A program made the position numbers and the translations under genes. Source: Spirochaetota bacterium (GTDB lineage Bacteria; Spirochaetota; UBA12135; COTS27; CBDBHE01). From it: DNA of 64,000 nt. The DNA lies in NCBI GenBank assembly GCA_965205605.1, contig CBDBHE010000002.1, positions 64,001 to 128,000 on the forward strand, given 5' to 3'. The notes under the pieces are model-generated. The model had not been told where the DNA came from and ran no database searches. It saw only the letters and a program-made list of their open reading frames with translations. Positions 36,544-61,184 of the stretch are shown here, piece by piece. Numbering within the stretch: the stretch's first letter is position 1; every line of letters starts with the position of its first letter.

Positions 36544-37800
36544 TTATATTTTTAAAAAAAATTTTCTTAATAATTCGATATTGTGTTTGTGCCCTGTTTT
36601 ATTAGCGGTAACCTTACAACGAAAAGGGTGCTTACTTAGAGAAAAATCACCTATAATGTCTAAAATCTTATGTCTTGCAAATTCCTTTTCAAACCTCAAA
36701 TTAGTATTAACTACTTTAGCTTTATCAATTAAAAGAGAATTATCAAGACTAGCTCCTTGTGCTAGTCCAATAGCTTGAAGAGTTTTGGTTTCTTCTAAAA
36801 ATCCAAAAGTTCTTGCAGGAGCAATTTCTTTTTTAAATACTTTAGGTGCTTCTTTACTAAGGTCAACTTTATAAATTTGATCTTTTTGAATTTTGTTAGG
36901 GTAAGAAAAAGTATATTCGATTTTAAAACCATCATAAGGTTCAATACGAATCCATTTTGTGTTATCTTTAGGATCTTTGTATTCGTAAGTTTTTTTTATT
37001 TCAATGGTTTTTAAGGTGTCTTCTTGTTCAACGATGCCTGTTTTTTCTAAAAGATCACACCACTGGATTGAAGAACCATCTAAAATAGGAATTTCTTCAT
37101 TGACTTTAATACAAATGTTACAAACCCCATAAACTTGAAGTGTGGCTAAAAGGTGTTCGACACAAGAAATAGAAAAATTTTTATTTTTGAGAGTGGTTGC
37201 TTGATTTGTTGAGATGACATTTTCAAAAGAAGCTTTTAATGATTTACCAGATGAGATTTCTTCAAAAATAATGCCACTATTGATAGGAAGTGGGATTAAA
37301 ATCACCCCTGTATTATTTCCTTTGTGAATTCCTTTTCCAGTAATAACAGCATTTTTAGCGATTGTTTTTTGCTTAATGGGAGTTTTTTTTATAGGGATGG
37401 TTTGATAATTGATTGATTTTGATGAGTGGGTGTTTTGATTAGTTTGTAAGTGTTCTGAAATTTTAAATAAAAGAGATTCTCTACTGAATGGTTTTTCTAA
37501 AAAATCGTTGGCTCCATTTTTGGTAACTTCAATTGTTGAGTTTGTGTTAATGTGACCTGAGATAATAATAATAGGGATATGGGCCCATTTTTTTTTAATT
37601 TCTTTTAATACTTGAAGTCCATCTTTTTCTGGCATCCAAATATCTAAGAAAATCAAATCTATTTGATGAGGATTAATTATCGAATCAATTTTTAAAGGAT
37701 TAGTACAATGAATGCTTTCATATTCAGAGCCTTTTAAAATATTAGCGATTGATTTTTGAATTAATTGTTCATCATCTATAATTAAAATTTTTTTTTTCAT
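36544..37800 (-). CDS. lpxC: response-regulator receiver domain fused to UDP-3-O-acyl-GlcNAc deacetylase
   Basis: N-terminal receiver (IIDDE, FLDIWMP, SGH, EKPF); C-terminal LpxC (KQKTI, GKGIH, VEHLL, PILDGS, IAPARTFGF, RHKILDIIGD, GH). Confidence 0.92.
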   Translation of the reverse strand: MKKKILIIDDEQLIQKSIANILKGSEYESIHCTNPLKIDSIINPHQIDLIFLDIWMPEKDGLQVLKEIKKKWAHIPIIIISGHINTNSTIEVTKNGANDFLEKPFSRESLLFKISEHLQTNQNTHSSKSINYQTIPIKKTPIKQKTIAKNAVITGKGIHKGNNTGVILIPLPINSGIIFEEISSGKSLKASFENVISTNQATTLKNKNFSISCVEHLLATLQVYGVCNICIKVNEEIPILDGSSIQWCDLLEKTGIVEQEDTLKTIEIKKTYEYKDPKDNTKWIRIEPYDGFKIEYTFSYPNKIQKDQIYKVDLSKEAPKVFKKEIAPARTFGFLEETKTLQAIGLAQGASLDNSLLIDKAKVVNTNLRFEKEFARHKILDIIGDFSLSKHPFRCKVTANKTGHKHNIELLRKFFLKI

Positions 37801-52072: not shown

Positions 52073-53224
52073 TTGAAACTCAAAAATACTTTATTAGATT
52101 GGATTTCTCAACAATTAATTAATTGGTTTCAAATTAATAAAAGAGATCTTCCCTGGCGAAAAAAAAGAAATCCTTACTCTGTTTGGATTTCTGAAATTAT
52201 GTTACAACAAACTCAAGTGGTAACGGTAATCCCTTATTATCTTAAGTGGATAAAATCTCTGCCTTCAATAGAATCGGTTTCAAAAGCCGATGAAGATTTC
52301 CTTCTCAAGCTTTGGCAAGGGCTTGGTTATTATTCTAGAGTGCGTAATATTCATAAAGCAGCAAAATGGATGGTTTTAAATCATCAAGGACAATTTCCAA
52401 AAGATTATCAACAGATAATCAATCTGCCAGGAATAGGAAATTATACAGCAGGTGCGATTAGTAGTATTGCTTTTGGAAAAAGAGTAGTGTTTGTGGATGG
52501 AAATGTTGAGCGAGTTCTTGCTCGGTTTTTTGCTTTAGAAGAACCTATTGAACAACTAAGAAGTCAAAAAATTATTTGGAATCTCGCTGAAAAATTGCTT
52601 CCTAAAAAAAATATCGATGATTTTAATGAATCTCTTATGGAGCTTGGAGCAACTTTGTGTACTCCCACTAAAGGATTTTGCACAGAGTGTCCTCTCGGTC
52701 AAAAATGCCTTGCTTTTAAGAAAAATAAAGTTAACAAGATTCCTTTTCGTCAAAAAAAAATTAAAACAATTAAAAGAACAGCTGTGAGTTTTGTGCTTTA
52801 TCAAAATAACTTTGATCCACTAAAAAAAGAAACAAAGTACTTGCTTTACCGTAGAAGAAAAAATGAAATCATGGGAGGACTTTTTGAATTCCCAACAATT
52901 GATCAAGATGAATTTAAAAAAATAAATAAATTACTCTTTAAAAAAAAAGAAATTCTAGAAGATCTTTTTAAAAAAAAATATGGCTTTATGATTAAAATTA
53001 AAGACTCTTTTTTTTCTTTAAAGCATTCCTATACTAAGTATCGCGTTGATTTAGAAGTTTTTTTTGCTTTTTTTAAAGCAGATGAAAAAAATAATTATCT
53101 TTTTAATGAAATGAATTCTAATTTATGTTGGGTTAATAGGGTTGAGTTTGAGCGTTGCCCCATGAATTCTTCAGGTGCTAAAATTGCCAAAAAACTTTTT
53201 TCATTACAAAAAAAATTTAACTAA
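52073..53224 (+). CDS. mutY: A/G-specific adenine glycosylase
   Basis: RDLPWR, SEIMLQQTQV, WQGLGYYSR, LPGIGNYTA, VDGNVERV, C-x6-C-x2-C-x5-C; start uncertain (ORF is open from 51965). Confidence 0.95.
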   Translation: MKLKNTLLDWISQQLINWFQINKRDLPWRKKRNPYSVWISEIMLQQTQVVTVIPYYLKWIKSLPSIESVSKADEDFLLKLWQGLGYYSRVRNIHKAAKWMVLNHQGQFPKDYQQIINLPGIGNYTAGAISSIAFGKRVVFVDGNVERVLARFFALEEPIEQLRSQKIIWNLAEKLLPKKNIDDFNESLMELGATLCTPTKGFCTECPLGQKCLAFKKNKVNKIPFRQKKIKTIKRTAVSFVLYQNNFDPLKKETKYLLYRRRKNEIMGGLFEFPTIDQDEFKKINKLLFKKKEILEDLFKKKYGFMIKIKDSFFSLKHSYTKYRVDLEVFFAFFKADEKNNYLFNEMNSNLCWVNRVEFERCPMNSSGAKIAKKLFSLQKKFN

Positions 53225-53307
53225 TCTTTTATCAATAAAACCCTCTTTTGAACCTTCTTTTTTTAATGTAATGTTATGATATTTTCATCTTTTCAAAATT
53301 AAAACCA

Positions 53308-54977
53308 TTGAAAAAATACTCTCCTTCTTTTTTTCCCAAAGTGAGTTTAGCTTTAATTGCCTTTGCAATGGGAGCAAGTGGACTTGCTTATGAATACACA
53401 TTTAGTAAGTTAAGCTCGGATTTACTTGGATTTTCAGCAAAGCAGTGGGCGTTTGTCATTGCTTTAATGATGCTTTTTATGGGGATTGGTTCGGACTTAC
53501 AAAAACATTTAAAAGATAAATTTCTTTTTGAAAAATTTATTTTAATGGAAATTATTCTTAGTCTTGTAGGAGGATTCGCTCCTATAATATTGCTTTATCT
53601 TTTTGGAGCACAAAGAGATTTTTTTGTTTTGTTTCAATTTCTTTTTATTGCTTTAGTAGGTTTATTAGTGGGAACGGAAATTCCTATTATGATTCGTTTG
53701 AATGCTCAGTATGAAAAAAAATTGAAAGTTAATTTAAGTGGGATTCTTCGTATGGATTATATTGGGGGATTTTTTGGAGCTCTTTTTTGGTTATATCTTT
53801 TGATTCGTTTTAGAAATATTTCTCAAATAGGGCTTGTTTTTGGTATTTTTAATTTAATGGCGACTTTTTGGGCTTTTTATTATTTTAGGACTCTTACAAG
53901 ATATACGTTTGTTTTTTTGTTGACGATTGTTTTAGTTTTAAGTATTTGTTTTTGTTCTCTTTTTTTTATTCCTAAATGGACTCTTTTTTTTGAACAGCAG
54001 CTTTTTAGAAATCAAGTCGTTTTTTCAAAAACAACTCCCTATCAGCATATTGTGCTTACAAAGTCGTCTTCAGGAATTTTTTATTGTTATATTAATGGAA
54101 ATACACAATTTTCTAGTTTTGATGAACACATCTATCATGAAATGTTGGTACACCCAGCGATGTTAGCTGCTAAAAGCCATGCGAATATTTTGATTTTAGG
54201 GGGAGGAGATGGGCTGGCTTTAAGAGAAATTTTAAAGTATAAAACTGTTGAAAAAGTTACTTTAGTTGATATTGATCCTCAAATGACGGAGTTTGCTAGA
54301 ACAAACCCTTATTTTCTTAAACTCAATCAAGGAAGTTTGAATCATGAAAAAGTCACAATTATCTCTAATAAAGAAATTACTAATAAAGAAAAAACAGCTT
54401 TTTATCTCCCCGATAGACGCTCGAGACCGATTGGTTTAGAAAAAAAAATGGGGGAAGTTTTTTTAATTCATATGGATGCGGCGGCTTACATTGATCAAGT
54501 AAAAGATTTTTATGATGTTATTATTTTGGATTTTCCTGACCCTAATCAATTGGGACTTGTGAAATTGTATTCACTTAGTTTTTATAAAAAATTACAAGAA
54601 AAATTAAGGCCTTATGGGATTATTGCTCAACAAGCCACTTCATCTGTTTATTCTAAAGAAACTTTTTTGTGTATAGGCAGGACTCTTAAAAAAGCAGGGT
54701 TTAGTGCTAAAGGGTATCATGAAGTAGTGCCTACTTTTGGAGACTGGGGGATTTTGGCTTGCCACTGCTAAACAAGATGCATCTGAAGAAATGATTGAGA
54801 AAAAACTTTTATCAATAAAAAAGATCCCTGTTGAGACAAAATATTTTTTCTGCACCTGTTTTAGGGCGTTCTTTAATTTTTGGGAAAGATTTTTTTAAAA
54901 CTGAAAAAGAGGGTTACAATACACTTTTAAATCATTTGATTTTTTATCTGTATCAAGAAGAAATTAAAAAATTTTAA
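53308..54977 (+). CDS. membrane-anchored polyamine aminopropyltransferase (spermidine synthase-like); two apparent homopolymer frameshifts near the 3' end
   Basis: About 7 TMs (SGLAYE, GTEIP, DYIGG), then TPYQHI, NGNTQFSSFDEHIYHEMLVHP, ILGGGDG, LDFPDP, VPTFGDWG; removing one base at G5 54746-54750 and at T6 54844-54849 extends the frame to TAA 54977. Confidence 0.88.
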
Positions 54978-55068
54978 GATTCAATTTTTAGCTAATTCGT
55001 TTAAATTTCTTTATATTTTAAATTAATTTTAATTTGCAATAGCTTATTTATGTTATAATGAGCTCATA

Positions 55069-55941
55069 ATGCATTTGCACCCTAGCTTTCTTTTTTTATT
55101 AACAGGTTTTTTATTTATATGGACTTGTGGGACTTGCTCAAAGGCTATTAGTAATCAGCAAAAAGTAAGTCAAGGGGGGCGTCATTTTAAAACATCCCTT
55201 TCAGAAGAAGCCTCAAAAGGTCTTGATTTAGAATCTCTTGTGGGAATTGTAAAAGAAGTCAAAACAGCAGAAGAGTTTGAGTCAACTCTTAATCAACCAA
55301 ATGGGATTAATAATCTTGATCTTAATGGAGATGGGAAAGTTGATTATATTAATGTAACAGAGTATGGCAGTAAAGCCAAAGCCAGTAAAGCGTATGGATT
55401 TTCGTTAACAACAGAAGTCGAAAAAGGTGAAGTCCAAGAATTAGCTACTGTTGAAATGACGAGTTCTGGAAATCAAGTGGATGTTCAAGTGGGAGGAAAT
55501 GAACAGATTTATGGGAGAGGTTCTTATTATAATTCGTATTTTCCTGTTAGTTCTTTTTTACTGTGGTCTTATTTGTTAACACCACATCCTTTTTATGCCT
55601 CTCCTTGGGGATATGGTTATTATCCGGGTTCTTATTATCCGTATTCGCGTGTGCCTTACGGGGCTTATTCTTCAAGAACAGAGCAGTATAAAAGAAATAC
55701 AGGGGTGCAAAAAACATCTTCGTTAAAAAATACAGGTCTTAATAATCCCAATAGAGGTAAAAGAGCCGATTCTGGGATTAGAAGAAGTCTTAAAAATCCA
55801 ACGACTTCTCAAAAAAGTTTTCAAAGTAGGAATGTTAATCGACGTGCCTCTAGTGGAGGTTTTGGGAGACGCTCTAGTTCGTTTAGAAGTGCTAGGGGTA
55901 TTAATTCTTCATCGAGAAGTTTCGGTGGATTTGGGAAGTAA
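55069..55941 (+). CDS. exported/lipoprotein-like protein with DLNGDG motif and Y/G/S/R-rich tail
   Basis: Hydrophobic leader ending IWTC; NNLDLNGDGKVDYI; YASPWGYGYYP; ends SSSRSFGGFGK. Confidence 0.75.
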   Translation: MHLHPSFLFLLTGFLFIWTCGTCSKAISNQQKVSQGGRHFKTSLSEEASKGLDLESLVGIVKEVKTAEEFESTLNQPNGINNLDLNGDGKVDYINVTEYGSKAKASKAYGFSLTTEVEKGEVQELATVEMTSSGNQVDVQVGGNEQIYGRGSYYNSYFPVSSFLLWSYLLTPHPFYASPWGYGYYPGSYYPYSRVPYGAYSSRTEQYKRNTGVQKTSSLKNTGLNNPNRGKRADSGIRRSLKNPTTSQKSFQSRNVNRRASSGGFGRRSSSFRSARGINSSSRSFGGFGK

Positions 55942-55946
55942 TTTTA

Positions 55947-56846
55947 TTGATGTTTGAATTATTAAAAAACACCATTATTCAAGATTATTTGGTTTTTGAT
56001 GTTGCGTTTGAGTATATTCACTGGGAATCTTTAATTTTTGTTTTAGAGGCTTTTGTTTTACTTTATTTAGGCAAGTTGCTCCATGGTTTTTTTTCTCCTT
56101 ATAAAGCAAATGAACAACTTGTTAAGTTAGATAATAAAGCGTTTTCGGTTTCTTTTTCAGGTTACATAATGGGAATTGGTTTAATTATTTTTAGTGTGAT
56201 TAAAGAAGGGGAGACTTTTTCATTATATTTTGATTTATTTGAAGTTGCTTTTTGGAGTTTTGTTGGGATTTTACTTCTTAATTTATCAAGATTTATTAAT
56301 GATCGATTGATTCTTTACAAATTTGATAATGTTAAAGAGATTTTAAAAGATAAAAATATTGGTACAGGAGCTGTTCAATTTGGAAGCTATTTTGGTTCGG
56401 CGATTGTTTTAAGTGCCTTGATTTCTCAACCAGCAAGTGATCCTTTTTTAATAGATGTTTTTAATACGATTATTTATTTTTTTATCACGCAACTCTTTTT
56501 TGTTTTATTTGGTTTTATTTATCAAAAAATAACAGTTTATGATTTTCATGAAGAAATTGAAAGAGATAACGCAGCAGCAGGAGTTAGTTTTGGCTTAACC
56601 CTTGTGGCTATAGGCATTGTCATAGCGCATCCTTTAAAGAGTAGTTATGGTATTGTTTCTTTTTTCATTTGGTTTGTTAATGGAGTAGTTCTTTTAGCTT
56701 TATCACGTTTTTTAATTGATAAAGTAATGATTAGAGGGGTATCCTTAGAGGATGAAATTAAAAATGACCAAAATTGGGGTGTTGCTCTTTTAGAAGGTGG
56801 GATTGCGATTACGGTTGCTTTTATACTGCAGGCTTCTTTTACGTAA
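55947..56846 (+). CDS. tandem DUF350 membrane protein
   Basis: Repeated units EQLVKLDNKAFSV / EILKDKNIGTG / EEIERDNAAAGV / DEIKNDQNWGVA between TMs. Confidence 0.85.
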   Translation: MMFELLKNTIIQDYLVFDVAFEYIHWESLIFVLEAFVLLYLGKLLHGFFSPYKANEQLVKLDNKAFSVSFSGYIMGIGLIIFSVIKEGETFSLYFDLFEVAFWSFVGILLLNLSRFINDRLILYKFDNVKEILKDKNIGTGAVQFGSYFGSAIVLSALISQPASDPFLIDVFNTIIYFFITQLFFVLFGFIYQKITVYDFHEEIERDNAAAGVSFGLTLVAIGIVIAHPLKSSYGIVSFFIWFVNGVVLLALSRFLIDKVMIRGVSLEDEIKNDQNWGVALLEGGIAITVAFILQASFT

Positions 56847-56909
56847 TAAATAGTATTATCAAAAATTGATATATAAATAAGAGTGTAATTAAAAATTAAT
56901 TTTAATTTT

Positions 56910-57701
56910 ATGGCTTTTTTTCTTGATACTAATCAAAAAAAGCAATTCGCTGGAATTTTTTTATTAGAAAAAATTATTAATGAAAAAAAAGCTTTTGATA
57001 TTTTTTTAGAGAACAATGATAAAGATTTAGAGCCCGTTTTTGAGTACCTCATGATGCATTCGTATATAAAAATTAAAAATGAGAAATTTTACATAGAAAC
57101 AGAAAAAGGAAACGATTTACTTAAAAAATTTGCACTTCGTTATAGAGATTTTCTAAGATTTTTTGATATTTATAATGCAGTGGATTTAGCAGAAGGTGCT
57201 TTTGCTTTTGAGTCTTACTTTGACTTTGAAGTAGATCAACAGTGGCAGATTTTTTTACAAGATCAAAGATGGGAGGATCTTAGAATTGCTGTTGCTGTTT
57301 TTAAAAAAATTAATCCAATTGAAATTGTTTTTATGAGTTTTATTCGAGAAAAGCGTTTTGGATTTACAGAGAAGTCTGGATGGCAATTTGATCTTCTTTT
57401 AGGTTCGGTTTGGGAAGAAATTTTAGATATTTGTAATACCGCTTTAAAAATGGAAGAGTTAGCTTATTTTGATGAAGAAATAAAGACGAATGTTAGTGGA
57501 GAAGAGGTTATTAAAGATATTATTATCCAAGGAGCTCAGTTGAATAAAAAACTGTTTCAAAAAGAAGGAGAGAGAGACAATCAATTAAATGGTTTTTGTG
57601 GTTCTTTAGAAGAGATTAGAGAAAATATTTTAAAAACATATGATAATTACTTAAATCCGTATTATCTTCCTGATTATTGGAAGGGAGGAATTTTAAATTA
57701 G
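56910..57701 (+). CDS. conserved hypothetical cytoplasmic protein
   Basis: 263 aa, acidic; WEDLRIAV and WQFDLLLG blocks; possible winged-helix N-terminus. Confidence 0.7.
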   Translation: MAFFLDTNQKKQFAGIFLLEKIINEKKAFDIFLENNDKDLEPVFEYLMMHSYIKIKNEKFYIETEKGNDLLKKFALRYRDFLRFFDIYNAVDLAEGAFAFESYFDFEVDQQWQIFLQDQRWEDLRIAVAVFKKINPIEIVFMSFIREKRFGFTEKSGWQFDLLLGSVWEEILDICNTALKMEELAYFDEEIKTNVSGEEVIKDIIIQGAQLNKKLFQKEGERDNQLNGFCGSLEEIRENILKTYDNYLNPYYLPDYWKGGILN

Positions 57702-57707
57702 AGGTAA

Positions 57708-58133
57708 ATGATGACAGAAAATTTTGATCAAGTGTGTGTAAGATCTAAAAAAGAAGATGGACTTGTTGATTTTTTAAGAGAAAGAGATTTTCAAGTAGAA
57801 ATATTACAAGAAGATTTATTAAAGGTTTCTAGTCCAGAAATTATTGATGTGTATATTCACATTAAAAACCAATCACTTTTTTTTGAAATAGAAATAGGGA
57901 TCATAGAAAATTTTGCTAGTGAAGAACTGTATAAAAAATTACTTGATTTAAATACAGAGATTCTTCCTGTCAGTTTGGGCTTGGATACAACTTCATCAGA
58001 GAAGCCAAGACTTGTGATTGTTGAAAGCAGAGAAATCAAAAATTTAGATGAAAATGAGATTCTTTGTGTTTTTGAAGCTTTTGAAATTGCTTCTGCTAAA
58101 GTAGAAGTTATTTTAAGCCAGTATATTAAATAA
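57708..58133 (+). CDS. YbjN/CesT (T3SS-chaperone-fold, YjfI-like) protein
   Basis: 141 aa acidic protein with LYKKLLDLN..PVSLG and NLDENEI patterns; immediately upstream of pspA. Confidence 0.65.
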   Translation: MMTENFDQVCVRSKKEDGLVDFLRERDFQVEILQEDLLKVSSPEIIDVYIHIKNQSLFFEIEIGIIENFASEELYKKLLDLNTEILPVSLGLDTTSSEKPRLVIVESREIKNLDENEILCVFEAFEIASAKVEVILSQYIK

Positions 58134-58147
58134 AAAAGGAGATTTTT

Positions 58148-58828
58148 ATGGGTGTTTTTTCTCGTTTGTTGAAAGTAGGTCAAGCAAAAGCAAATCAAAT
58201 TGTTGATAATTTAGAAAAACCTGAAATTATGTTAGAACAAGCAATTTTAGATCAGGAAAAACAAATTAGGCAAGCTAAGGCTAATGTACAACAAGTCATT
58301 GCTACAGAAAGGCAAACAAAAGCTCTTTTAGATAAAGAAGGTAATGAAAAAACTAATTGGGAAGAAAGAGCTAAAGCTGCTCTTAAGGCAAATGAAGAAA
58401 CTCTTGCTACTAAAGCCCTTCAGCGTTCAGAAGAACATGAAAAAAAAATGATCGCTTTACAACCCACTTGGGAAGTACAAAGAAAAGATGTGGAAAGCTT
58501 AAAGCAAGATATCCAAAAAATGGAAAATGAACTTGCAGAATTAAAGCGAGATAAAGATATTATTGTCGCTCAATCAAAAGCAGCTGAAGTTAAAAAAACA
58601 ATTTATGAAGCAAAAGCTAAAATCGGTAAAAATTCTACAGCCGATTTAATCGCTAGAATGAAAGCGAAATCTGAAAGACAAAATTTTGAAGCTCAAGCAG
58701 CTAAAGAACTTTTAGACGTTGGAGGAGACTCTTTAGAAAAAGACTTTGAAAAAATTGAAAGAAGTGCTACAACCAATCAATCGATTCAAAATAAATTAGA
58801 ATCTATGAAAAAAGAAATTGAGGGATAA
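58148..58828 (+). CDS. PspA/IM30 (bacterial ESCRT-III) family protein
   Basis: MGVFSRL..ANQIVDNLEKPEIMLEQAI, WEERAKAAL..LATKAL, long coiled coil; AAGGAG RBS. Confidence 0.93.
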   Translation: MGVFSRLLKVGQAKANQIVDNLEKPEIMLEQAILDQEKQIRQAKANVQQVIATERQTKALLDKEGNEKTNWEERAKAALKANEETLATKALQRSEEHEKKMIALQPTWEVQRKDVESLKQDIQKMENELAELKRDKDIIVAQSKAAEVKKTIYEAKAKIGKNSTADLIARMKAKSERQNFEAQAAKELLDVGGDSLEKDFEKIERSATTNQSIQNKLESMKKEIEG

Positions 58829-58842
58829 TGATTCTTTTCCAA

Positions 58843-59403
58843 TTATTTTTTTTCTTCTTCTTTTTCATATTTGATATAAATAGAAACTACAATACCAGAG
58901 ATAGCTCCAAACAAATGTTCTTCCCAGGAAATCCATTGATTAATAGGTAAAATACCAGATAATAAAGTCCCTCCATATAAAAAAGTAATTAGAAGACTAA
59001 TAAATATTTTTCCAAATTGTTTATGTAACCATCCTGAAATAGCAAGAAATGTAATTAACCCGTAAACAACTCCACTAATGCCAATATGAGAACCATTTCT
59101 TCCAATGATCCAAACAAAAATTCCAGTGATCAACATAATAATAAAAAAAACTTTCCAAAAAAAATCTTTATAAAAAGAAATTAAAAAAAAAGACAAAATA
59201 AACAAAGAGATCGAATTACTTAAAAGATGTGCAAAATTTCCGTGAATAAAAGGAGAAGAGAAAATACCTATTAAACCTAGTTTGGTTCGAGGAATGAGTC
59301 CATATTGTTTAAAATTAACCATTGGCAAAAGTGCGTCAATAATGAAAATGCCCCAGATAAAAATGATCAGGTAGGTTGATTTTTTTAAATTGTTGTAAAT
59401 CAT
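58843..59403 (-). CDS. rhomboid family intramembrane serine protease
   Basis: PFIHGNFAHLLSN, HIGISGVVYG (GxSG), ISWEEHLFGA. Confidence 0.9.
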   Translation of the reverse strand: MIYNNLKKSTYLIIFIWGIFIIDALLPMVNFKQYGLIPRTKLGLIGIFSSPFIHGNFAHLLSNSISLFILSFFLISFYKDFFWKVFFIIMLITGIFVWIIGRNGSHIGISGVVYGLITFLAISGWLHKQFGKIFISLLITFLYGGTLLSGILPINQWISWEEHLFGAISGIVVSIYIKYEKEEEKK

Positions 59404-59494
59404 ATTGGTTTCTCTTAAAATGAAAATAAATTTTTATTATTATATAATACGATGAATAGTTTTTATTTTTTTCAAATCAAAATAAATAAGTCTA

Positions 59495-60142
59495 ATGAAA
59501 TTTTTAATGATTAATCAATTATTATTAGTTAATTTAAAAATAAAAAAAATTACTTTACTTTTTTTTCTTACCTTTTTTTTACAATTGCTTGCTATCGAAA
59601 TTCGATTAAAATCACCAGAACGCGTTTATTTAAAAAAAAATCGGATTTGTGTTGATTTAGAAACCACTGATAATATTTTGTCGGATGAAATTATAGAGTA
59701 TTTGACTTACGGTATCCCTGTTTACTTTAATTATTTTATTTATTTTTATGAGAAAAAATCTTTTTTTGATAAAATTTTAGTAAAAGTAGTGATTAGAAAG
59801 AAAGTGGAATATGATATTTGGTCAAAAACTTATTTTATTCGATGTAAAAAAATTAAAGGATACCCTAAAAAAATAAAAAATATTCATGACTTACAACAGG
59901 AAGTCGTTGCCTTAAAAGGAGTTTCAGTTATTGATCAATCTGTTTTATCAAGAAAATCTAAATATTATTTTAAAACTAAAATGGGACTTATTATTAAGCG
60001 CTCTTTTTCTCCTTTCTATCAAATTTTTTTTAGTTTTTTTTCAGTTTTTAAATATAAAACTACTTTTTTTGATAGCATTCCTTATTCTTTTAATGAATTA
60101 AAAAATTTTTCAAAAAATAAAGTGAATTTAAACAAAAAATAA
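59495..60142 (+). CDS. exported protein, DUF4390-like
   Basis: Signal-like N-terminus; L..GIPV.F.Y.I and YDIWSKTY pattern. Confidence 0.5.
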   Translation: MKFLMINQLLLVNLKIKKITLLFFLTFFLQLLAIEIRLKSPERVYLKKNRICVDLETTDNILSDEIIEYLTYGIPVYFNYFIYFYEKKSFFDKILVKVVIRKKVEYDIWSKTYFIRCKKIKGYPKKIKNIHDLQQEVVALKGVSVIDQSVLSRKSKYYFKTKMGLIIKRSFSPFYQIFFSFFSVFKYKTTFFDSIPYSFNELKNFSKNKVNLNKK

Positions 60143-60152
60143 AATTTTATTT

Positions 60153-61184
60153 TTAAACATCTCTTACACAACGAAAACTTAAGTTACAACTAGAAGAATT
60201 AGGTGTATTTGAGGCTCTCGCACCAACACGGTAGCGATAACAATAAGATGCATGGCAAAGATACGATCCTCCTTTAATGACCTTTAAATTATTTTTTTTA
60301 ATTCCTAAAGGGTTTTTTGAAGAAGAGTTTGTGTGATAATTTCGGTCCCACCAATCATAGCACCATTCCCAAACATTTCCTGCTATATTATAAAGCCCAA
60401 AACCATTAGGTTCATAACTATCGACTGGAGCGGTTACTAAAAAGCCATCTTCTTTTTTGTTTTTTAAGGGAAACTGACCTTCCCAAATATTACACATCAG
60501 TTGGTTGTTTTTTTTAAATTGATTTCCCCAAGCATAACGTTTTTGTTCCAGGTTTCCTCTGGCAGCACACTCCCATTCGGCTTCTGTAGGCAGGCGTTTT
60601 TTAGCCCACTTACAGTATCTCAGAGCATCATTATAAGAAATATGGACTACAGGATGATTCATTCTAGTTTTTATAGTGGATTTAGGGCCTTCAGGATGGT
60701 CCCAACAAGCTCTATTAACTTTAATCCACCATTCTTGTCCAGAGACAATATTTGAATTGTTATAAGCTTCTTTCATTTGTTTTTTTGATAAAAGCATCCA
60801 GAAAACAAACGAAGACCCCAATCTTTCTGCTTCTGTTAGATAATGAGTGGCTTTAACAAATTCACTAAATTTTTCATTACTAACAACATATTTGTCAATA
60901 TAAAAGGGATTTACATATACTTTTCTAGCAGGGCCTTCCCCGTCGCTTGGGTGAGTGTATTTTTCGTTACTACCCATATAAAAAGTAGTATCTTTAATGA
61001 AGACCATTTCTTTGGTGCAACCTTTATTGATACGATGCAGTTTTTCTTTGTTGCCAATAAAATTTAATTGAGCACAGGAAGAAAAAGATAAAGCAATTGT
61101 AGAATAGCCTAAAGAAGTTAAAAATTTTCTTCTATTAATATTATTAGTGTTAAAGAGAGGATTTTTTTTAGGAGGAAAAGGCAT
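60153..61184 (-). CDS. formylglycine-generating enzyme (SUMF1/FGE) family protein with Tat lipoprotein signal
   Basis: NRRKFL..LSFSSC; HPVVHISYNDA, RLPTEAEWE, GNVWEW, KGGSYLCHASYCYRYR, FRC. Confidence 0.92.
   Translation of the reverse strand: MPFPPKKNPLFNTNNINRRKFLTSLGYSTIALSFSSCAQLNFIGNKEKLHRINKGCTKEMVFIKDTTFYMGSNEKYTHPSDGEGPARKVYVNPFYIDKYVVSNEKFSEFVKATHYLTEAERLGSSFVFWMLLSKKQMKEAYNNSNIVSGQEWWIKVNRACWDHPEGPKSTIKTRMNHPVVHISYNDALRYCKWAKKRLPTEAEWECAARGNLEQKRYAWGNQFKKNNQLMCNIWEGQFPLKNKKEDGFLVTAPVDSYEPNGFGLYNIAGNVWEWCYDWWDRNYHTNSSSKNPLGIKKNNLKVIKGGSYLCHASYCYRYRVGARASNTPNSSSCNLSFRCVRDV

Follow-up and report, generated by a model that had tools for sequence, protein, structure and literature searches.

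The stretch of DNA considered here, called the window throughout, is a 64,000-nucleotide piece of a Spirochaetota bacterium genome (assembly GCA_965205605.1, contig CBDBHE010000002.1, positions 64,001 to 128,000). At 53308-58828 it carries six genes on the + strand, in which a membrane-bound polyamine aminopropyltransferase is set beside a lipoprotein-like protein, a DUF350 membrane protein and a member of the PspA/IM30 family. The six genes are a real conserved cluster and more than a chance arrangement, since the same genes recur in the same order in dozens of distant genomes; a nearly unvarying lysine at the end of the lipoprotein-like protein suggests, in addition, where the enzyme may act. 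PspA is the bacterial relative of ESCRT-III, and little is understood of the proteins it works with beyond the classical Psp system. The operon type in question spans many phyla and has been described before, with candidate functions that rest on sequence. The genes at the locus are given below, where ORF2 and ORF4 are the names we use for the window open reading frames (ORFs) at 55069-55941 and 56910-57701.

53308..54977, + strand: polyamine aminopropyltransferase of the spermidine-synthase fold, fused to seven transmembrane (7TM) helices (Spermine_synth, NF002956); the uninterrupted ORF stops at 54771
55069..55941, + strand: ORF2, a lipoprotein-like, membrane-anchored protein that matches no Pfam or NCBIfam family
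55947..56846, + strand: tandem DUF350 (YjfL-family) integral membrane protein of 299 aa, with two four-helix units
56910..57701, + strand: ORF4, an acidic cytoplasmic protein of 263 aa from an unnamed family, with a winged helix and an all-helical C-terminal domain
57708..58133, + strand: CesT/Tir-like (YjfI-like) chaperone-fold protein (CesT_Tir_1)
58148..58828, + strand: PspA/IM30 family protein (PspA_IM30)
58843-59403, - strand: convergent rhomboid protease (Rhomboid, E 3.7e-15), with its stop 14 nt beyond that of pspA

After the frame of the first gene is read through, the junctions between the six genes measure 91, 5, 63, 6 and 14 nt. A preliminary description, made from the sequence alone, had already reported six co-oriented genes with gaps of 5-91 nt once the frames were corrected, and a rhomboid gene ending 14 nt past pspA on the other strand; the coordinates, tblastn and the ORF list agree with this layout. 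Families were assigned by comparing the window proteins with the Pfam and NCBIfam profiles, and the tandem DUF350, CesT-like and PspA identities proposed earlier are backed by Pfam matches that are over the cut-off or have strong E values.

The spread of the cluster was surveyed by a pattern scan for ORF4 with one genome per species. From 162 relatives the best 80 loci were kept, and the window proteins were searched against these ORF4-anchored loci. DUF350 was found in 76 of them, ORF2 in 69, the CesT-like protein and PspA in 67 each, and the 7TM enzyme in 62; the gene order of the window and its single strand are kept in all loci but one, and most of the misses fall at contig ends. By their record titles, the 80 loci come from Verrucomicrobiota (several orders), Calditrichota, Holophagae and other Acidobacteriota, Myxococcota, Desulfobacterota, KSB1, Gemmatimonadota, Nitrospinia, Spirochaetales, Chitinivibrionales, Planctomycetales, Lentisphaeria, Cloacimonadota and Bacteroidota, together with one contig each from an Actinomycetota and a Promethearchaeota metagenome-assembled genome. 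Between ORF4 and the CesT-like gene, 48-49 of the 67 loci holding both have a further gene of about 1.1 kb for an RCK/TrkA-domain K+ channel. A gene for S-adenosylmethionine decarboxylase (AdoMetDC) starts no more than 700 nt after pspA in 42 of the 62 loci with enough downstream DNA, overlaps the pspA stop in 3 more and lies further downstream in another 2. The full form of the module is a set of eight genes in a fixed order, seen across more than 10 phyla: 7TM aminopropyltransferase, ORF2, 8TM DUF350, ORF4, RCK-gated K+ channel, CesT-like protein, PspA and AdoMetDC. The window copy is reduced, without the channel and AdoMetDC in cis. The preliminary description had left the co-occurrence of the genes to a neighborhood survey, and it held up; the idea of a novel, rearranged variant did not, as the operon is described in the text of Ravi et al. 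2024 (mSystems, PMC11237479) and its order is fixed over all these phyla. We also noticed a sigma-54 activator upstream of ORF2 in one locus (L013, 3975-5927) and a stand-alone response-regulator receiver between pspA and AdoMetDC in another (L014, 10042-10443).

Closer to home, 40 related genomes were surveyed, eight from the same taxonomic order and 32 others from the class or phylum. The search located ORF4 in six of the eight; the other 32 gave no match. All six keep ORF2, DUF350 and ORF4 together (loci L088-L093; genomes G001, G003 and G005-G008), with the 7TM enzyme elsewhere in G003, G005, G006, G007 and G008 and not found in G001, and with the CesT-PspA pair elsewhere in G005 and G007. 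The single cluster seen in the window is the ancestral arrangement, which is otherwise being broken up within its order. Several single-contig genomes of this order score just 75-89% complete, a hint that the marker sets suit the lineage poorly.

The product of the first gene matches Spermine_synth with an E of 1.1e-36 and the NF002956 polyamine aminopropyltransferase model with 488.7 bits (cut-off 472), and seven hydrophobic cores precede its catalytic domain. These matches support the earlier identification of a 7-TM spermidine-synthase-like enzyme, and the family profiles likewise uphold the view that an aminopropyltransferase stands here in place of an ATP-grasp ligase. In polyamine aminopropyltransferases, the GGGDG motif binds decarboxylated S-adenosylmethionine (dcSAM) and the Asp motifs are catalytic; in spermidine synthases, the Asp pair of the DxxDP motif holds putrescine by its two amines. 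GGGDG, DxDP and DFPDP are invariant in 56 of the 56 family members, the window copy included, which argues for a working enzyme of the dcSAM type (the loop-charge and divergence figures below are from the same 56 members). The closest solved structures are those of broad-specificity polyamine aminopropyltransferases (1UIR and 3ANX) and of a thermospermine synthase (6BQ2). The 7TM domain, for its part, looks functional, more than an anchor, because many of its polar and acidic positions are conserved in at least 95% of the sequences (E29, D38, E124, D150 and others); the text of Ravi et al. calls it 'transporter-like' (PMC11237479).

The mean number of Lys and Arg residues in the enzyme family is 3.3 in the N-terminal tail, 3.0 in loop 2-3, 2.6 in loop 4-5 and 3.1 in loop 6-7, and it is 1.0, 0.14 and 0.9 in loops 1-2, 3-4 and 5-6. 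By the positive-inside rule, Lys/Arg-rich loops face the cytoplasm, and the pattern would then place the catalytic domain, which follows TM7, outside the cytoplasm and on the same side of the membrane as the tail of the lipoprotein. The genome (G000) also has a soluble speE beside speD, the gene for AdoMetDC, at about 82157-83516 of contig C6 (L106/L107), away from the PspA cluster. As this pair is already encoded, the membrane enzyme is a second, specialized aminopropyltransferase.

It is worth pointing out that the enzyme gene is not read in a single frame in the window. An intact homologue (L003) aligns to the window enzyme with 50% identity over 468 residues in one frame (tblastn), and compared with it the window gene has two frame changes in its last fifth, from +3 to +1 to +2. 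Each of them fits one extra homopolymer base, in the run of five G at 54746-54750 and in the run of six T at 54844-54849. The read-through stop lies at 54975-54977, hence the 91-nt gap to ORF2. Contigs of the same sample carry, over 53308-54600, a second version of the enzyme gene with 5-27 other letters per piece, many of them at third-codon-like positions, which suggests that a related strain or species is present in the sample.

The second gene of the cluster may encode the acceptor of the enzyme. The DLNGDG motif and the SSRSFGGFGK tail that were pointed out before are both present in the translation of ORF2. Its AlphaFold2 (AF2) model (pLDDT 79) has an N-terminal helix at residues 5-22, a compact domain from about 44 to 235 and a disordered tail, and the NNLDLNxDGKVDY (DxDxDG-like) motif sits within the folded domain. 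A Cys follows the N-terminal hydrophobic helix in 54 of 68 ORF2 homologues, in agreement with the 'lipoprotein' label of Ravi et al. No clear match to the folded domain was obtained in the PDB, where Foldseek returned nothing at E<=0.001 and the wide VIA-align search nothing above Z 4.4. A hydrophobic stretch at residues ~160-175 was considered as a second TM helix, with the tail in the cytoplasm; this was rejected, as AF2 has a 7-residue helix inside the domain at this place.

The tail of ORF2 is made of Ser, Gly and Arg, with a GGFG motif and a Gly-Lys end (...SSRSFGGFGK in the window). In the homologues, the net charge over the last 60 residues is +9 to +20, with hardly any acidic residue among them, and the distance from GGFG to the end ranges from 1 to 103 residues. 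In 73 of 75 loci the protein ends in Lys; among ORF2 homologues from the databases, a set that overlaps these 75 loci, 119 of 119 end in Lys and 117 in Gly-Lys. The two exceptions are L091 (genome G001), where ORF2 ends in ...FRR, and L051 (G041), where it ends in ...RRR. Both keep ORF2, ORF4, CesT and PspA, and in both genomes the search found neither an orthologue of the 7TM enzyme nor an AdoMetDC match. A Lys-ending ORF2 goes together with the enzyme in cis in 62 loci and, in addition, in 4 members of G041's own family, and with an enzyme elsewhere in the genome in 3 cases (G042-G044) and in 5 relatives of the same order. Over the testable genomes, then, both the terminal Lys and the enzyme are present in 74, neither in 2, and a mixed state in 0; three Lys-ending loci at a contig edge were left out. 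There are just two independent loss events behind this tally, and so we take it as a lead and attach no statistic to it. The lysine is near-invariant, it disappears along with the enzyme and AdoMetDC, and the comparable E. coli proteins YjfM and YgiB end in Gly-Gly; for these reasons the tail end of ORF2 is suggested as a candidate acceptor of the membrane enzyme. Our literature search found no paper that proposes a protein acceptor or notes the terminal lysine in this operon type, and the main text of Ravi et al. 2024 does not contain the word 'lysine', although its supplementary tables may bear on the point.

ORF4 matches no Pfam or NCBIfam family, and 3 of 30 members give weak matches to HTH_45. 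AF2 models it with confidence (pLDDT 90.6). Over residues 3-87 the model can be superposed on MarR/PadR winged helices, with a middling Z of 5-6.8 in the wide VIA-align search, where all the top rows are winged-helix proteins; the helical C-terminal domain has no partner in that search, in which it was barely tested. Foldseek found no PDB structure for ORF4 at E<=0.001, and the best ESM Atlas score, 0.83, is a lead only. The family is acidic (pI 4.1-4.8, with a median of 5.3 for the winged-helix part) and has a mean column identity of 57%. Homologues at 45-59% identity number in the hundreds, with 305 cluster representatives at E<=1e-3, and the 150 representatives listed are 115-335 aa long, none of them a larger fused form. 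We read ORF4 as a cytoplasmic adaptor or regulator. Two different components had been said earlier to stand in for E. coli YjfK (DUF2491) and YjfM; with a probability of 0.6% in hhalign, ORF4 is unrelated to YjfK.

The remaining three proteins are easier to place. The DUF350 protein matches its Pfam family in two stretches (E 5.9e-57), and the CesT-like protein scores 36.4 bits against CesT_Tir_1 (cut-off 27), with an orthologue in L003 that also touches DUF2170. The CesT-like gene stands directly upstream of pspA in 67 of the 80 loci. PspA itself gives 118.8 bits against PspA_IM30 (PF04012, cut-off 33.9) over residues 2-222, is the one match to this family in the whole genome, and has a mean column identity of 70% across 23 orthologues; against the equivalog of the classical protein, TIGR02977, it reaches 63.7 bits, far under the cut-off of 242.95. 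A complex prediction with two CesT-like chains and one PspA gave a score of 0.00 against a mark of 0.32, and it speaks neither for nor against binding.

As for the surroundings, the rhomboid protease had been taken for a part of the system. It adjoins the module in 3 of the 80 loci and in none of the 6 loci from relatives of the same order, and for this reason we do not count it in; it is probably a bystander, a chance neighbor. Its score against the rhombosortase model TIGR03902 is 45.7 bits, below the cut-off of 84, and the tail of ORF2 is without the terminal TM helix of a GlyGly-CTERM substrate in the AF2 model. Further along, a DUF4390 protein (E 4.3e-09) is encoded at 59495-60142 (+), and convergent to it, at 60153-61184 (-), is an FGE-sulfatase (formylglycine-generating enzyme) family protein (E 3e-78) whose N-terminus, RRKFLTS, resembles a twin-arginine signal. 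A match to LpxC (E 9e-84) lies at about 36559-37371 (-), within a 421-aa open frame that exceeds the length of LpxC; because of this match, the organism can be taken as a diderm with lipid A. A scan of 52800-59800 for promoters and terminators gave 25 promoter-like and 2 terminator-like sites, not above the level in shuffled sequences, and is uninformative on co-transcription.

How might such a module work? The general picture, which we hold to be reasonably probable, is that of an envelope module in which a membrane enzyme with a dedicated acceptor and PspA take part in the same response, from genes that may be co-transcribed. AdoMetDC would supply dcSAM, and the membrane enzyme, if active in this organism, would move the aminopropyl group to a dedicated acceptor at the membrane and not to bulk spermidine. 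PspA and its CesT-like partner would stabilize, guard or remodel the inner membrane in the same envelope response, and ORF4, DUF350 and the K+ channel could join the enzyme half to the PspA half. A more specific proposal concerns the nature of the acceptor, and we put it forward tentatively, as a possibility with considerable doubt attached: the acceptor may be a protein, namely ORF2, at the side-chain amine of its invariant C-terminal lysine. The AdoMetDC of the operon would make the dcSAM; the 7TM domain, with its many conserved acidic and polar residues, would pass this on to the catalytic domain on the outer face, and the basic tail would acquire a polyamine-like terminus at its Gly-Lys. 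In E. coli, YjfM and YgiB would arrive at a similar product by another route, with spermidine ligated to the terminal carboxylate by YjfC and YgiC. The tail end thus offers one candidate for two questions, the target of a membrane-bound, dcSAM-dependent aminopropyltransferase with its own AdoMetDC, and the physiological substrate of the E. coli peptide-spermidine ligases YjfC and YgiC, with a Lys that hardly varies, differs along with the enzyme chemistry, and is lost together with enzyme and AdoMetDC. If true, it would amount to a new protein modification on the bacterial envelope.

Several points weigh against this picture. The frame changes, if real, would delete the last ~75 residues of the catalytic domain, and public contigs from three runs cover 53308-55100 at a depth of about 2 and leave 54628-54867 uncovered. 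Of 118 near-invariant positions in the family, the window enzyme deviates at 10, more than any other of the 56 members (the others have a median of 1 and a maximum of 7). An outer-face catalytic domain is unexpected and fits poorly with the need for dcSAM, unless this is passed across by the 7TM domain, and the E. coli analogy has a topology problem too, because an ATP-grasp ligase must be cytoplasmic. The relatives of the same order scatter the genes over two or three places, so linkage in an operon is not obligatory. Our literature search found no experimental work on this operon type, and for related operons the text of PMC10948618 states that no experimental data are available. Some of these points lead to another explanation, in which the module is decaying in this organism: the frame changes would be real, the enzyme a pseudogene, and only PspA and the CesT-like protein, perhaps with ORF2 to ORF4, would still work. 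A small genome of 1.69 Mb, with a GC content of 22-36% in the region, would suit such a history, as would the relatives that have already split the cluster and, in G001, lost the enzyme. Both frame changes are, however, single extra homopolymer bases, the usual signature of an assembly error; all three frames are open and still align to the homologues, with the catalytic motifs intact, and the window ORF2 keeps its Gly-Lys end, unlike the ORF2 of the two enzyme-less genomes. The CesT-like protein is equally divergent, at 9 of 33 near-invariant positions, and the substitutions in the enzyme may therefore reflect a fast-evolving lineage. Taken together, decay is on the unlikely side, and still a serious contender.

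Unlikely as well is an enzyme that is simply a membrane-located polyamine synthase, with a free product for membrane stabilization or export and with Gly-Lys as a docking or unrelated motif. It would explain why both Asp residues that hold the putrescine amines are invariant and why the closest solved relatives have a broad specificity, and a system that 'monitors polyamine concentration' is among the options listed in the text of PMC11237479. The same text cites Li et al. 2019, who are said there to have argued for other aminopropylation substrates. A free polyamine would also duplicate what the soluble speE-speD pair in the genome already offers, and it leaves unexplained both the invariant Lys and its loss along with the enzyme and AdoMetDC. 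The lysine itself brings to mind Braun's lipoprotein, Lpp, in which the side-chain amine of the last residue, a Lys, is joined to peptidoglycan by L,D-transpeptidases. ORF2 shares with Lpp a lipoprotein-like character (Cys in 54 of 68), a C-terminal Lys and, as LpxC indicates, a diderm host; the two have no relation in sequence or fold. Such a link, with the aminopropyltransferase unrelated to it, is very unlikely: a search of the genome, which is 91% complete, found no L,D-transpeptidase of the YkuD family, and such a link would not explain why the Lys is lost along with the 7TM enzyme and AdoMetDC. We give even less credit to the anti-phage defense around an ESCRT-III-like protein that the preliminary description had also entertained. 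Ten cases of PspA genes with DUF350 neighbors in large phage genomes have been reported (bioRxiv 10.64898/2026.10.24.761521). PADLOC, however, matches none of the six proteins except for a generic methyltransferase-fold match (mad2) on the enzyme, the module is a stable chromosomal one with one fixed order across phyla, and mobile-element genes were not noted in the flanks of the loci examined.

The window locus can be compared with other operons built around PspA. With the classical system (pspF-pspABCDE) it has in common a PspA/IM30 family protein, the membrane-binding effector. The differences are the lack of a sigma-54 activator in the locus, a PspA that scores under the equivalog cut-offs, and a CesT-like partner. 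The earlier statement that PspB, PspC and PspF are missing stands for PspC in the whole genome and for PspB and PspF in the locus, as the genome-wide search covered PspC only. The bac operon of P. aeruginosa is closer in one respect: the CesT-like BacA (DUF2170) lies immediately upstream of the PspA-like BacB, and the operon has been linked to biofilm and envelope phenotypes (PMC10948618, in its text). It has, according to its authors, no spermidine-synthase-like gene, and it is without the block of DUF350, lipoprotein and aminopropyltransferase seen in the window.

The yjfI-yjfJ-yjfK-yjfL-yjfM-yjfC operon of E. coli shares more. It has a CesT-like YjfI, a PspA paralogue (YjfJ), a DUF350 protein (YjfL) and a polyamine enzyme at one end, and the kinship that was claimed between the window and PspA/polyamine operons of the yjfIJKLMC kind, whose function is experimentally unresolved, is supported. 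YjfL has 4 TM helices where the window protein has 8, and the polyamine enzyme is an ATP-grasp protein, YjfC, named 'peptide--spermidine ligase' in RefSeq, where the window has an aminopropyltransferase. The six window proteins gave no match in Pfam or NCBIfam to an ATP-grasp, glutathionylspermidine-synthetase-like ligase, and no Pfam match to DUF2491 (YjfK) or DUF1190 (YjfM). ORF2 had been seen as a different component that merely stands in for YjfM, and here the likeness turned out to be greater than was thought. YjfM has a basic N-terminus, a hydrophobic helix that ends in LKGC, a DNDGDG motif, a short hydrophobic stretch and a GG(Y/F)GRSSS tail, so that the two proteins, both membrane-anchored, have the same layout: each carries a DxDxDG motif and, in a tail of Ser, Gly and Arg, a motif of the GG(F/Y)GRSSS type. 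The comparison of the ORF2 and YjfM (DUF1190) profiles gave an hhalign probability of 0.6%, which is not significant, and the likeness is thus confined to layout and tail motif, short of demonstrated homology. What differs is the very end: Gly-Lys in ORF2 and Gly-Gly in YjfM, with ...WGG in 13 of 15 family members, ...RGG in 1 and a fifteenth that looks frameshifted. E. coli also has a paralogous pair, ygiB-ygiC, and YgiB shares the layout of YjfM and its Gly-Gly end. Glutathionylspermidine synthetase couples spermidine to glutathione through the carboxylate of its glycine. A Gly-Gly end beside a ligase and a Gly-Lys end beside an aminopropyltransferase would fit one idea, that of the tail end as the target of the enzyme. 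The physiological substrate of YgiC 'remains unknown' in the text of a 2025 review (PMC11762307).

The closest comparison is with the operons sorted by Ravi et al. (PMC11237479), in whose text the yjf operon is the 'third group' and a 'second group' combines CesT/Tir and PspA with a 7TM spermine-synthase fusion, an 8TM DUF350 protein and a lipoprotein, as in AAN56744-AAN56747 of Shewanella oneidensis. The window locus is a member of this class, for which the same text already gives the same general idea, with polyamine monitoring among its options and with Li et al. 2019 cited for the linkage to AdoMetDC and for aminopropylation of other substrates. Like the second group as described there, it has adjacent CesT_Tir_1 and PspA_IM30 genes with a 14-nt gap, a spermine-synthase domain fused to an N-terminal 7TM region, and an 8TM DUF350 protein, in two stretches of one 299-aa chain. 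The group also has a beta-rich DUF4178 protein, sometimes an RHH regulator, and a lipoprotein with a 'Ctha_1186 domain'; ORF2, which is lipoprotein-like and has a folded domain with no clear PDB match, may be the counterpart of the latter. DUF4178 was not found in the 91%-complete genome of the window, and the helical ORF4 takes its place, a variant that the figure or supplements of the paper may list. Unlike the second group in the text, where the K+ channel and AdoMetDC are assigned to other groups, most relatives of the window form carry these two genes as well. The window locus is ordinary for its type, somewhat reduced, and adds one more example; what is new here is the eight-gene form, the winged-helix component ORF4 and the pattern of a terminal Gly-Lys.

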